A DNA stretch of 64,000 nucleotides, taken from UHGV virus genome UHGV-0179803. One strand, given 5' to 3'. Position numbers and translations under genes: made by a program. The notes beneath the pieces are model-generated. The model made no database searches. It had not been told where the DNA came from and saw nothing but the letters and a program-made list of their open reading frames with translations. Position 1 is the first letter of the stretch, and every line of letters starts with the position of its first letter. The DNA comes from a virus. Positions 12,490 to 14,139 of the stretch are shown piece after piece.

Positions 12490-14061
12490 TTACCAGCCGA
12501 TTGCAGCACCTGCACCCCAGACAACTTCTTCATTATTAGCAGCAACACTTGCTTTAACAGTTAAGTTGTCGTTGACACGAGCACTTGCACCTACTGCGAT
12601 AGCTTGCTGACCATCAAAACCACCAACACCAACACCTACACTGAAAGTTTGATGGCTGTTGACTTCAGGAATGTTAGCCATTGCAGCCACACCAGCGATA
12701 CCCGCAGCAGCACGTTTGCGGTTAGCATCTACAGTGTTTTTCAGGTCACTGAAGTTTTTATTCAGTTTCTGAATTTCATGGCTGTTACGGTTAATGGCCT
12801 GACGGTTAGCTTCGATGTTTTTACGGTTGTCGTAAATGCCAGCATATGCACCATCAATGCGTTCTTCGTTGCGTTGGATGCGGATGCTGTTGTTAGCTAC
12901 ATCACGAGACACTACTTTCACATCGTTCTTAACATTGTTGACACCAGCTACTGCTTTATCTGCCGTGTTCTGTGCTTTATCAGCTTTAGCACTTGCAGTG
13001 TTTGCAGTATCCTGAGCATTCACCACAGCATTGTTTAGTGCGCCGTTTTGATTTTTCAGATCAGCAATGTCGTTTTTGTTTGTAGTGACTTGCTTGTTAG
13101 TATCTGCCAAATCTTCTTTCACAGCATCAATCTGGTTGCGATTTTCAATAGCTCCAGCTAATGCGCCATCTGCTTTGATAGCCACATCTTCCAGAGCAGC
13201 TTTGTCAGCCTTATTTTCGTTCAGGTTGGTTAATTGTTCATCCTGTACAGCATTTTCACGTAGAGCTGTTTCTGCTGCGTTTAAAGCATTATTGGCTTTA
13301 CTGTCAGTAACAGCAAGGTCAGTTTTATCTGCTTTTACCTGTTCTAACCGTCCAAGTTCTGCATCTTGTGCTACATTCTGGCTAAGAGCTTGATCTGCTT
13401 TTGCACCTGCATCAATGGCTAAATTTTTTGCCTGATCTGCATCTCGGATACCAGTTTCTGCTTTGCTGATGGCATCGTTAGCTTTTGCGTCAACAACTAC
13501 TAAATCAGTTTTATCAGCCTTAGTGTTAACCAGTTGATCAACTTTAGCATTAGTTTTCTCAAGTTCTTCTTGCGTGTAGCTTACAGCCCCATGAAGAATT
13601 TGTTGTTCTACCTCGACCCTATTCAGGTGGTTACTGTTGTTGTTAATCTGATCCTGCATACCATCCATACGATCATTTTGTTTCTGTTGGTCTTTCAGGA
13701 AATCATTTTTGTCAACTTTATTGCCAACCCGATCTTTCAGTTCATCAACATCACGACCAATGTTGCTAACTTGCTGATCTAGTCCGTTAATGTCAGCACT
13801 CAAATCGCCAATTTGTTGGTCATGCTTATTAAGGTGGTCATAGATACCAGAGGCATCAAAACTACTACCAGTCTGGATTTGATCAATACGGTTATGCACA
13901 TCAGAGAACTTGTCGTTCATATCGTGGCGCAGTTCATCCAACTGCCAGTTCTTTGTAGAAGCGTCAGGGTTCTCAGGATTACCACTTGCAGCCAGGGCGG
14001 CACCAGAGAACAGAGCAGCGGCAATTGCAGTAGTGATGATAGCTTTATTCATATGTTTCAT
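12490..14061 (-). CDS. YadA/Eib-like trimeric autotransporter adhesin-like protein
   Basis: 523 aa from ATG (MKHMNKAII) after GAGG; signal peptide ending AALA-AS; long heptad/Asn-rich coiled-coil stalk; C-terminal anchor GIAGVAAMANIPE...TFSVGVGVGGF...VGASARV...WGAGAAIGW. Confidence 0.75.
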   Translation of the reverse strand: MKHMNKAIITTAIAAALFSGAALAASGNPENPDASTKNWQLDELRHDMNDKFSDVHNRIDQIQTGSSFDASGIYDHLNKHDQQIGDLSADINGLDQQVSNIGRDVDELKDRVGNKVDKNDFLKDQQKQNDRMDGMQDQINNNSNHLNRVEVEQQILHGAVSYTQEELEKTNAKVDQLVNTKADKTDLVVVDAKANDAISKAETGIRDADQAKNLAIDAGAKADQALSQNVAQDAELGRLEQVKADKTDLAVTDSKANNALNAAETALRENAVQDEQLTNLNENKADKAALEDVAIKADGALAGAIENRNQIDAVKEDLADTNKQVTTNKNDIADLKNQNGALNNAVVNAQDTANTASAKADKAQNTADKAVAGVNNVKNDVKVVSRDVANNSIRIQRNEERIDGAYAGIYDNRKNIEANRQAINRNSHEIQKLNKNFSDLKNTVDANRKRAAAGIAGVAAMANIPEVNSHQTFSVGVGVGGFDGQQAIAVGASARVNDNLTVKASVAANNEEVVWGAGAAIGW

Positions 14062-14110
14062 AGTTAAGCGCACCTCAGTCAGTTAATCTGCATCTCGTTT
14101 CGATGAAGTA

Positions 14111-14139
14111 AATATACCAAAATTGGAGCATCATGTCAA
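14111..14139 (-). promoter_or_regulatory. sigma70-type promoter for the adhesin-like gene
   Basis: Minus strand reads TTGACA-17 nt-TATATT about 45 nt upstream of the start codon. Confidence 0.55.

Follow-up and report, generated by a model that had tools for sequence, protein, structure and literature searches.

A YadA-anchored trimeric autotransporter gene in a divergent rV5-like phage whose product is probably displayed on infected cells

In the 64,000-nt stretch of the virus genome UHGV-0179803 that was analysed here (hereafter the window), a gene at positions 12490..14061 on the minus strand encodes a predicted trimeric autotransporter (TAA, type Vc), and this protein is quite probably displayed on infected cells as an accessory protein that is not part of the virion. 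Its export, its trimerisation, the timing of its expression and its surface display are what we infer from the signals in the gene and its product. Judged by its gene content, the window belongs to a divergent rV5-like myophage (Vequintavirinae). A preliminary description of this stretch had proposed a phage-borne TAA of the YadA/Eib kind, with its own sigma70 promoter, next to the tail-fibre module and made for the host outer membrane; the observation was confirmed by the present analysis, and the interpretation was partly supported. The gene, the segments of its product and its transcription signals are located as follows.

12490..14061, minus strand: TAA gene, 523 amino acids (aa) from ATG, plus stop codon
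13990..14061, minus strand: signal peptide, aa 1-24 (MKHMNKAIITTAIAAALFSGAALA, followed by AS), called by inspection and hydropathy and kept across the family
13864..13989, minus strand: distal tip, aa 25-66 (SGNPENPDASTKNWQLDELR...), without a recognisable head domain
12721..13863, minus strand: coiled-coil stalk, aa 67-447, called from periodicity, modelled helix and K[AV]DK motifs
12493..12720, minus strand: YadA-type membrane anchor, aa 448-523, with four beta strands within 473-521 and a terminal Trp
14139..14111, minus strand: sigma70-type promoter TTGACA-17-TATATT with a TG extended -10, matching 11/12 positions
12474..12455, minus strand: intrinsic terminator (AGGCCACC-TTCG-GGTGGCCT, then a T-rich run), 15 nt past the stop codon and kept in the related locus L002

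Domain architecture of the protein

The C-terminal domain is assigned as a YadA-type anchor because the Pfam profile, the PDB sequence search and the fold search agree. The hidden Markov model of the Pfam family YadA_anchor (PF03895), on which the preliminary description had staked its anchor claim, matched aa 465-523 over the full profile (1-60) with E=4.7e-18 and 65.5 bits, the gathering score being 22.7. In a search against all PDB sequences the sole matches at E<=0.01 were the YadA anchor 2LME (E=3.8e-7) and the AtaA anchor. The AlphaFold2 (AF2) model, a monomer built from a 24-sequence family alignment with a mean predicted local distance difference test (pLDDT) score of 60, was used for secondary structure and anchor fold only; it places the anchor strands at residues 473-482, 485-497, 500-509 and 513-521, and the only significant PDB folds retrieved with it by Foldseek were the anchors of Hia (3EMO, 2GR7, 2GR8) and YadA (2LME), with target TM-scores of 0.61-0.74. 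The last 78 residues show a hydrophobic periodicity of 2.08, as expected of alternating beta strands. The protein ends in ...GAGAAIGW, in agreement with the C-terminal Trp described earlier, and in the alignment the final W is invariant in the 24 family members.

At the other end, the gene has a Shine-Dalgarno sequence (GAGGTG) 8 nt before the ATG, and an in-frame alternative start, GTG at 14073, lies upstream of this ATG. The N-terminus was judged by inspection to be a Sec signal peptide: MKHMNKAIITTAIAAALFSGAALA has a basic n-region with two lysines, a hydrophobic core of 17 residues and an A-x-A site (A-L-A, cleaved before A-S), which fits the cleavable signal peptide of the preliminary description. 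The tip that follows is part of a poorly modelled N-terminal region, with pLDDT below 50 at residues 1-37. Abundant residues of the product are Ala (15.5%), Asn (11.9%) and Asp (10.3%), and Cys is absent.

The coiled-coil stalk that had been proposed was also recovered. Hydrophobic residues recur every 3.4-3.5 positions across most of the segment 38-445, the heptad register is unbroken from residue 287 to 437, and the AF2 model is helical over residues 38-462 with breaks at 116-117, 181-184 and 282-286, the helix 287-462 running into the anchor strands. Four K[AV]DK motifs (NKVDKNDF at aa 115, TKADKTDL at 181, VKADKTDL at 243 and NKADKAAL at 284), three of which coincide with breaks of the modelled helix, resemble the IENKADKAD and LxxKADKxx 'beta-layer' insertions known in TAA stalks, for example those of Actinobacillus OMP100 and NadA4 (Hartmann et al., PMC4786415). 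Part of the stalk is duplicated, a 62-residue unit at aa 177-238 being found again at 239-300. The passenger would thus be essentially entirely coiled coil and, at about 425 helical residues x 0.15 nm, would form a rod estimated at ~60 nm.

By its anchor, signal peptide, stalk with TAA motifs and C-terminal aromatic residue, the protein is a predicted member of the TAAs (type Vc). An adhesive head domain, which is common but not obligatory in this class, is missing from the predicted architecture: the Pfam scan returned no head, neck or YadA_stalk domain even at E<=1, and the NCBIfam scan gave only sub-threshold matches, to coiled-coil families and BimA.

Transcription signals

The gene's own sigma70 promoter, claimed in the preliminary description as TTGACA-17-TATATT, is best read against the whole window. 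Loose promoter matches in a 5-kb scan were as frequent as expected (9 vs 9.3), and a lone promoter-like match thus means little. Near-consensus sigma70 promoters, matching at least 11 of 12 positions, numbered 23 in the 64-kb window, against 1.6 in shuffled sequence, and seven of them are perfect (12/12). All but two lie on the non-structural coding strand, which is minus for 12-21 kb and plus from 22 kb, and the window scan found none in the sense direction within the fibre operon at 1-11.5 kb. This distribution places the TAA promoter in a genuine host-RNA-polymerase promoter class of the phage, whose non-structural genes seem to depend to a large extent on host RNA polymerase in its unmodified form. 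Because its promoter belongs to this non-structural sigma70 class, the TAA gene would not be co-regulated with the fibres. The related locus L003 has kept the promoter (as TTGACG-17-TATATT), and L002 has a different sigma70-like promoter, TTGACA-17-TAAACT, at the same position.

Relatives of the gene and selection on it

Megablast of positions 11500-15000 against cultured phages gave no match, and no full-length protein match was found among them; 61 phage records match only the last 110-175 residues of the protein, at 41-52% identity. Blastn of the gene against 5,426 complete Escherichia coli genomes likewise returned nothing. Since there is no nucleotide match in cultured phages or in these E. 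coli genomes, a recent E. coli or prophage origin is ruled out. Similarity to bacterial proteins is restricted to the anchor and the adjoining stalk (35-50% identity). A search of 5.8 billion proteins yielded ~33 close relatives (50-91% identity, 369-565 aa); every one of them stems from an assembly of metagenome or SRA data, and for many the contig measures 135-148 kb. An IMG/VR scan found two related loci only.

In the family alignment, most relatives show hardly any change in the signal peptide and the tip (SGNPENPDASTKNWQLDELR). The middle stalk (aa 161-290) contains cassette indels and varies in length, with 43% identity and 41% gaps, and the membrane-proximal stalk (aa 377-447) is almost invariant, with 91% mean identity. 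Over aa 420-523 the family has two anchor alleles, ...RKRAAAGIAGVAAMANIPEV...GAGAAIGW and ...NKDMKRGVAGAAALAGMPQV...GGVGIAW, which follow the same proximal stalk and switch near aa 420; two alleles on one stalk point to recombination within the translocation unit. The related locus L011 has an unrelated N-terminal passenger and tip on the same proximal stalk and anchor. The ratio of nonsynonymous to synonymous substitution rates (dN/dS) is 0.23 and 0.29 overall in comparison with L002 and L003, respectively; by segment, the proximal stalk and anchor stand at 0.08-0.10 and the tip and distal stalk at 0.26-0.59, the tip being least constrained. The overall values indicate that intact copies are under purifying selection, which is strongest at the base of the fibre.

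A 3.5-kb metagenome contig (P0032) encodes the same stalk, which after ...NRKNIEANRQA joins a Gln/Ala/Lys-rich DUF5384 (PF17358) in place of the anchor. Separate DUF5384 open reading frames (ORFs) lie near the TAA gene in L002 (8256-8813) and L003 (14396-14530). Recombination or a chimeric assembly could account for the fusion.

Instability of the locus

Four related loci (L003, L010, L011 and L012) share the gene order of the window, with 82-93% nucleotide identity, and differ at the TAA spot. A tRNA cluster that lies upstream of the gene is present in the window, L002 and L010 and is apparently missing in L003, L011 and L012, where the blastn alignment skips window positions 14896-14409 (judged by blastn gaps only). 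TnpB (IS605 OrfB; Cas12f-like) adjoins the TAA gene downstream in L003 (11517-12644, replacing a small HNH-family nuclease gene) and upstream in L010 (3231-4319). In L010 a deletion has left a 153-aa TAA stub that directly abuts the gene for an immunoglobulin (Ig)-like protein; other relatives carry frameshifted TAA fragments of 86-185 aa, and in one relative an in-frame deletion fuses the tip to the last anchor strands. Some of these frameshifted or deleted copies may be assembly errors. A search with the N-terminus only, for proteins that share the tip in another architecture, returned only decayed copies of the TAA gene.

The gene also moves as part of a block. On the 140-kb contig L002, tRNAs, small ORFs, TAA gene, terminator and HNH gene form a block that is 80-92% identical to window positions 14867-12194 and sits among ligase, exonuclease and nucleotide-metabolism genes, beside genes found at 43-47 kb of the window. 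The HNH gene of L002 (11624-11866) has 96% amino acid identity to that of the window and is directly downstream of the TAA gene despite the different genome context. These arrangements make the TAA gene dispensable, mobile and modular, in the manner of an accessory gene and not of a core part of the virion. It has the features of a phage 'moron', namely its own promoter and terminator and a patchy presence at the same site in related genomes. The term 'moron' was coined for temperate phages, and the genome here is of a virulent type.

Two further observations concern nucleases at this spot. TnpB is a transposon-associated nuclease, and it is found within virulent phage genomes, in the same hypervariable spot and on opposite sides of the TAA gene. 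On small mobilizable Enterobacteriaceae plasmids (H87), a YadA-anchor gene is directly followed by an HNH gene. A TAA-HNH module shared with the E. coli plasmid was considered and rejected, the two HNH proteins being unrelated (E=1.3). The recurring adjacency may be coincidence or a repeated association with homing nucleases.

YadA-anchor genes of other lytic phages

The case is not an unusual one. YadA-anchor genes recur in lytic phages of Enterobacteriaceae, dozens of lytic phages already have one annotated, and papers of 2013 and 2023 remarked on them; the present gene is a member from an uncultured clade. In the BFVD, 17 viral proteins share the fold of the TAA protein at E<=1e-3, including proteins of phiEco32, FSL SP-076, SKML-39, fHe-Yen9-04, Yoloswag, TG1 and phiR1-RT. 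The 'adhesins' of other lytic phages (the 'agglutinating adhesin' of phiEco32, those of FSL SP-058/076, SKML-39 gp201, GAP32_424, vB_SalP_TR2 gp24 and fHe-Yen9-04 g441; PHROG 17426/8062/26246) have the overall fold in common with the present protein and anchors 41-52% identical to its own. In contrast, their passengers are unrelated, some having collagen-like repeats or globular N-terminal parts, and unlike them the present family is confined to uncultured rV5-like phages.

All four homologues checked for a signal peptide (SKML-39 gp201, ECML-606-1, GAP32_424 and TR2 gp24) have one. None of the five loci examined, those of these four and of the truncated MN03 gene, is in a tail module; their neighbours are small genes of early type or genes of nucleotide metabolism, and the GAP32 gene adjoins tRNA genes and an annotated sigma70 promoter. 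The same off-tail position was pointed out in 2013 for the YadA gene of FSL SP-058/076, which was called a 'putative virulence gene' (Moreno Switt et al., PMC3728262), and in 2023 yadA homologues were reported as the most abundant 'virulence-associated auxiliary metabolic gene (AMG)' of N4-like viruses (PMC10654107). In the literature we found annotation-level remarks only and no functional study of lytic-phage autotransporters.

Some GenBank records of phage YadA-anchor proteins carry the labels 'tail protein', 'receptor binding protein' or 'recognition of host receptor' (H25 of TR2, H21 of fHe-Yen8-01 and H4 of SW16-7). Two of these three labelled proteins, TR2 gp24 and the SW16-7 protein P0049, have a signal peptide, and TR2 gp24 is encoded between early genes and the dUTPase gene. 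The labels are probably propagated annotation errors.

Host surface or virion

Several findings favour the host outer membrane as the destination of the TAA protein. A Sec signal peptide and a C-terminal barrel of the type handled by the beta-barrel assembly machinery (BAM) do not fit cytoplasmic tail assembly; the gene uses the non-structural, early-type promoter class; rV5-type virions are built without the protein; the gene has decayed or been lost in several otherwise collinear relatives; and four other phage YadA-anchor proteins carry signal peptides and come from non-structural loci. The earlier statement that the protein is made for the host outer membrane and not for the virion thereby gains indirect support.

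In the pathway that we propose, host RNA polymerase would transcribe the TAA gene from its own sigma70 promoter alongside other non-structural genes. Sec would export the precursor, and cleavage after Ala24 would remove the signal peptide. The BAM complex would insert three four-stranded C-terminal units to form a 12-stranded barrel, and the passenger would thread outward and zip into a trimeric coiled-coil rod of about 60 nm, interrupted by the four beta-layer motifs. As an outcome, the protein would coat the infected cell and later its debris and would be absent from the virion.

Some points weigh against this proposal. The signal-peptide call was made by eye, from sequence and hydropathy, and the trimeric state is assumed from membership in the anchor family, the model being a low-confidence monomer. 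A survey for expression, localisation or phenotype data on the TAA gene or its homologues found none. In addition, existing annotations and one proteomic detection speak for a structural adhesin or tail protein of the virion: PHROG 17426, an 'adhesin' in the category 'tail', matches the full-length protein (E=3e-43), several GenBank records of homologues are labelled as tail or receptor-binding proteins, and a cyanophage 'YadA domain-containing structural protein' was detected in a virion preparation by liquid chromatography-mass spectrometry (PMC9146016), so that some phage YadA-domain proteins may well be associated with particles. The gene also lies only ~0.9 kb from the fibre operon. We nevertheless regard a virion-associated fibre as very improbable. 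A cleavable Sec signal peptide and a BAM-dependent anchor are unsuited to virion assembly in the cytoplasm, the gene is on the opposite strand with its own terminator and with a sigma70 promoter of a class absent from the fibre operon, and its neighbours in L002 are ligase genes and genes of nucleotide metabolism. The gene is missing from rV5 and from all cultured relatives, and it is truncated or deleted in several relatives that are otherwise collinear. The 'tail' labels probably stem from the word 'adhesin', and the cyanophage virion preparation may have contained outer-membrane contamination. Co-regulation with the structural module, cytoplasmic assembly and conservation among related virions, which would mark a fibre or tail protein of the virion, are not what the predicted features of this gene indicate.

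Comparison with known systems

Like the YadA-type TAAs, and especially NadA and OMP100, the protein combines a predicted Sec signal peptide, a coiled-coil passenger, KADK motifs and a four-strand anchor with an aromatic end. It differs from them in being encoded by a virulent phage and not by a bacterium, and in having no head, neck or other catalogued passenger domain. With the Eib proteins of E. coli it shares being a phage-carried TAA with a YadA-type anchor and a coiled-coil stalk, encoded by an independently transcribed accessory gene. Eib genes, however, belong to temperate lambdoid prophages and are expressed in the lysogen, and their products combine a head of the YadA type with a neck and with defined regions of the stalk that bind Ig. 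A strictly virulent way of life is established for rV5-like phages; the window covers part of the genome, and lysogeny genes are possible elsewhere. The term 'Eib-like' in the preliminary description is thus apt for the YadA-type anchor but not for the passenger, for which there was neither a Pfam match to a YadA-like head, neck or stalk nor a match to a solved Eib passenger; of the chains matched in the PDB sequence search at E<=0.01, none bears the name of an Eib protein. A place in the Eib group was rejected on these grounds and for want of a temperate-prophage setting.

A closer parallel in destination is offered by T5 Llp, phi80/N15 Cor and lambda Lom/Bor, which like the TAA protein are phage proteins with a signal peptide that are sent to the host envelope and not to the virion. 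They are different in kind: each is either a small lipoprotein or an 8-stranded barrel, some of them act by blocking a single specific receptor, and they have no kinship in sequence or structure to a ~60-nm fibre. T5 Llp is an early product of a virulent phage that blocks FhuA and prevents superinfection as well as the loss of progeny on debris. To our knowledge, few proteins of virulent phages are known to be placed in the host outer membrane, T5 Llp being the textbook case.

Possible roles of the fibre

As for the role of the fibre, our leading guess, held with less than even confidence, is that it is a steric or adhesive layer that stops further phage adsorption. A dense layer of 40-70-nm rods present from early infection would hinder adsorption to the infected cell and later to its debris. 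Such shielding would cover competing phages as well as the phage's own progeny, which would otherwise bind doomed cells or lysis debris, and it would parallel T5 Llp in function by different means. Early-type expression, length variation by indels, the lack of a head and the recurrence of the gene type in lytic lineages are all consistent with shielding, and none of them is specific to it. Two considerations tell against it: none of the sequence features points to exclusion over adhesion or aggregation, and the most conserved part is the membrane-proximal stalk and not the tip, which a purely steric role does not predict.

The main rival is that the fibre sticks the infected cell to uninfected hosts, to other infected cells, or to gut mucus or matrix, so that the burst takes place where susceptible cells are dense or the infected cell is held in place until lysis; we regard this as possible but doubtful. 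Adhesion and autoaggregation are the classical activities of TAAs, and passages in PMC12511318 and PMC7568254 describe chain formation and aggregation driven by Eib proteins. The near invariance of the tip in most relatives is as expected of a binding site, and a stalk that varies in length by cassette indels is as expected of adhesins that reach past the surface polysaccharide. By dN/dS, on the other hand, the tip is the least constrained segment (about 0.26-0.62), L011 has a different tip on the same base, and Pfam recognises no head domain of a known adhesive type, the autoaggregation of TAAs being mediated by globular heads according to a passage in PMC7568254. Homotypic sticking, moreover, would cluster only cells that are already infected. 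Two other proposals were considered. One is that the gene is selfish cargo, captured from Enterobacteriaceae, moved by homing endonucleases or transposon-like elements through a hypervariable island and of little use to the phage. The spot is indeed an indel hotspot (tRNA presence or absence, TnpB in L003 and L010, the linked HNH gene, relocation in L002), and several TAA copies have decayed. This explanation is unlikely in view of the purifying selection on intact copies (dN/dS 0.23-0.29, down to 0.08 at the base), the strong promoter that each of them retains, in L002 with a different sequence, and the independent acquisition of the same protein type by unrelated lytic lineages, from which a recurrent benefit can be argued. 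The other is protection in the animal host, through binding of Ig or complement regulators that confers serum resistance, or as a 'virulence AMG' that raises pathogenicity. Stalks of Eib, YadA and UspA2 are known in this family to bind Ig or complement regulators, and the proximal stalk (91% mean identity) could be a ligand-binding segment; phage yadA homologues have also been labelled putative virulence genes (PMC3728262, PMC10654107). We consider this role quite unlikely: in a strictly lytic phage type the carrier cell dies within one cycle and would draw no benefit, the protein has neither similarity to the Ig-binding Eib passengers in the PDB nor a head and neck of the Eib type, and with no copy in 5,426 complete E. 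coli genomes the gene is not passed on as a conversion gene.

More broadly, it is conceivable, although we would not count on it, that virulent phages of several unrelated lineages (rV5-like, phiEco32-like, N4-like, Ackermannviridae and jumbo phages) took over the type Vc pathway of the host, each on its own, to re-surface doomed cells. If so, the fibre would be an active tool of phage spread or competition and not a passive relic, acting either as a 60-nm 'picket fence' against rival phages and debris or as a tether to uninfected neighbours for a point-blank burst, and it would represent a new general class of surface remodelling in lytic infection. The TAA locus is a clean test case for what YadA-anchor genes of lytic phages do: it offers a complete cassette together with naturally occurring alleles, some intact, some shuffled and some decayed, and E. 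coli K-12 is a host for close rV5-like relatives of the phage. The answer would inform our view of how superinfection and the loss of progeny on debris are handled in lytic infection. It also bears on the safety assessment of therapeutic phages, in which YadA-anchor genes are flagged as virulence genes, and on annotation practice, in which 'adhesin' has been read as 'tail'; the labels 'tail protein' and 'virulence factor' are both unsupported.

Genome and gene neighbourhood

The assignment of the window to a divergent rV5-like myophage follows comparison with rV5, FV3, PDX and related coliphages, in which the primase-helicase is ~77% identical and a 1,939-aa Ig-like protein 46-52% identical. 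Upstream in the window are rV5-type fibre genes and a fibre assembly protein gene (PHROG). The window carries tRNAs, a DnaB-type primase-helicase and a family-A DNA polymerase, in line with the replication genes and tRNAs listed in the preliminary description and with a phage of virulent type. In rV5, an annotated bidirectional terminator follows the Ig-like gp27, and beyond it ends a leftward cluster of small non-structural genes, for which sigma70 promoters are annotated; an autotransporter gene is absent from the syntenic site. The window has the same layout, with extra material closing the leftward cluster, in leftward order tRNAs, three small ORFs, the TAA cassette, the HNH gene and the unit of a 61-aa protein. 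The neighbouring features are as follows.

14557..14800, minus strand: tRNA-Met/Thr/Arg(CCU) cluster, with its own promoter at 14854..14825
14148..14533, minus strand: three small ORFs for predicted membrane proteins (39, 52 and 28 aa), between the tRNAs and the TAA promoter
12164..12430, minus strand: small HNH-family nuclease gene, 88 aa (PHROG 1035/26577), with its own terminator
11791..12035, minus strand: separate unit with a perfect TTGACA-16-TATAAT promoter (12035..12008) and a 61-aa membrane-protein ORF (11791-11976)
11590..11608, no strand: bidirectional terminator that parts the rightward fibre/Ig-like operon from the leftward non-structural unit, annotated in its rV5 equivalent

The three small membrane ORFs have 80% nucleotide identity to L002, where they are collinear with the TAA gene. 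No Pfam or NCBIfam family was found in the neighbouring small ORFs (the three membrane peptides, the HNH gene and the 61-aa protein), and nothing among them resembles the SadB-type lipoprotein helper of SadA.

The TAA gene is convergent with the fibre/Ig-like operon, as had been described, the operon ending at 11563 just before the bidirectional terminator. The statement that it lies next to the tail-fibre module needs qualification: it is nearby, at ~930 bp, but it belongs to a different unit, three small units lie between, and in L002 the block is elsewhere. With the TAA gene closing the leftward non-structural unit, its nearness to the fibres is incidental and implies no functional tie comparable to that of the lambdoid lom/eib site. 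A functional link to the fibre module from proximity was rejected for the same reason, the relocation of the block in L002.

Several other features of the window were noted. Two paralogous tail-fibre genes of PHROG 4465 lie at 430-1470 and 2509-3573 on the plus strand (cf. rV5 gp33/gp30), and the fibre assembly gene comes after the first of them. The N-terminal region of the 1,939-aa Ig-like protein (5744-11563) weakly matches a PHROG of RCC1-like proteins ('regulator of chromosome condensation'). To the primase-helicase ORF at 32832-35888 on the plus strand (1,018 aa), relatives align in two pieces with 65-69% coverage; at the junction of these pieces the relatives hold a homing endonuclease or methyltransferase gene, and in the 1,018-aa protein Pfam DnaB_C is found only at aa 338-530. 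About 300 residues of this ORF may have been inserted, as an intein or as a fused mobile gene, or may result from a two-gene fusion. Finally, the 483-aa ORF at 18513-19964 on the minus strand contains DUF2201_N (putative metallopeptidase) and the VWA-like DUF2201, while PHROG and rV5 gp12 give 'HNH endonuclease', a mismatch of domain and label that looks like an annotation conflict.

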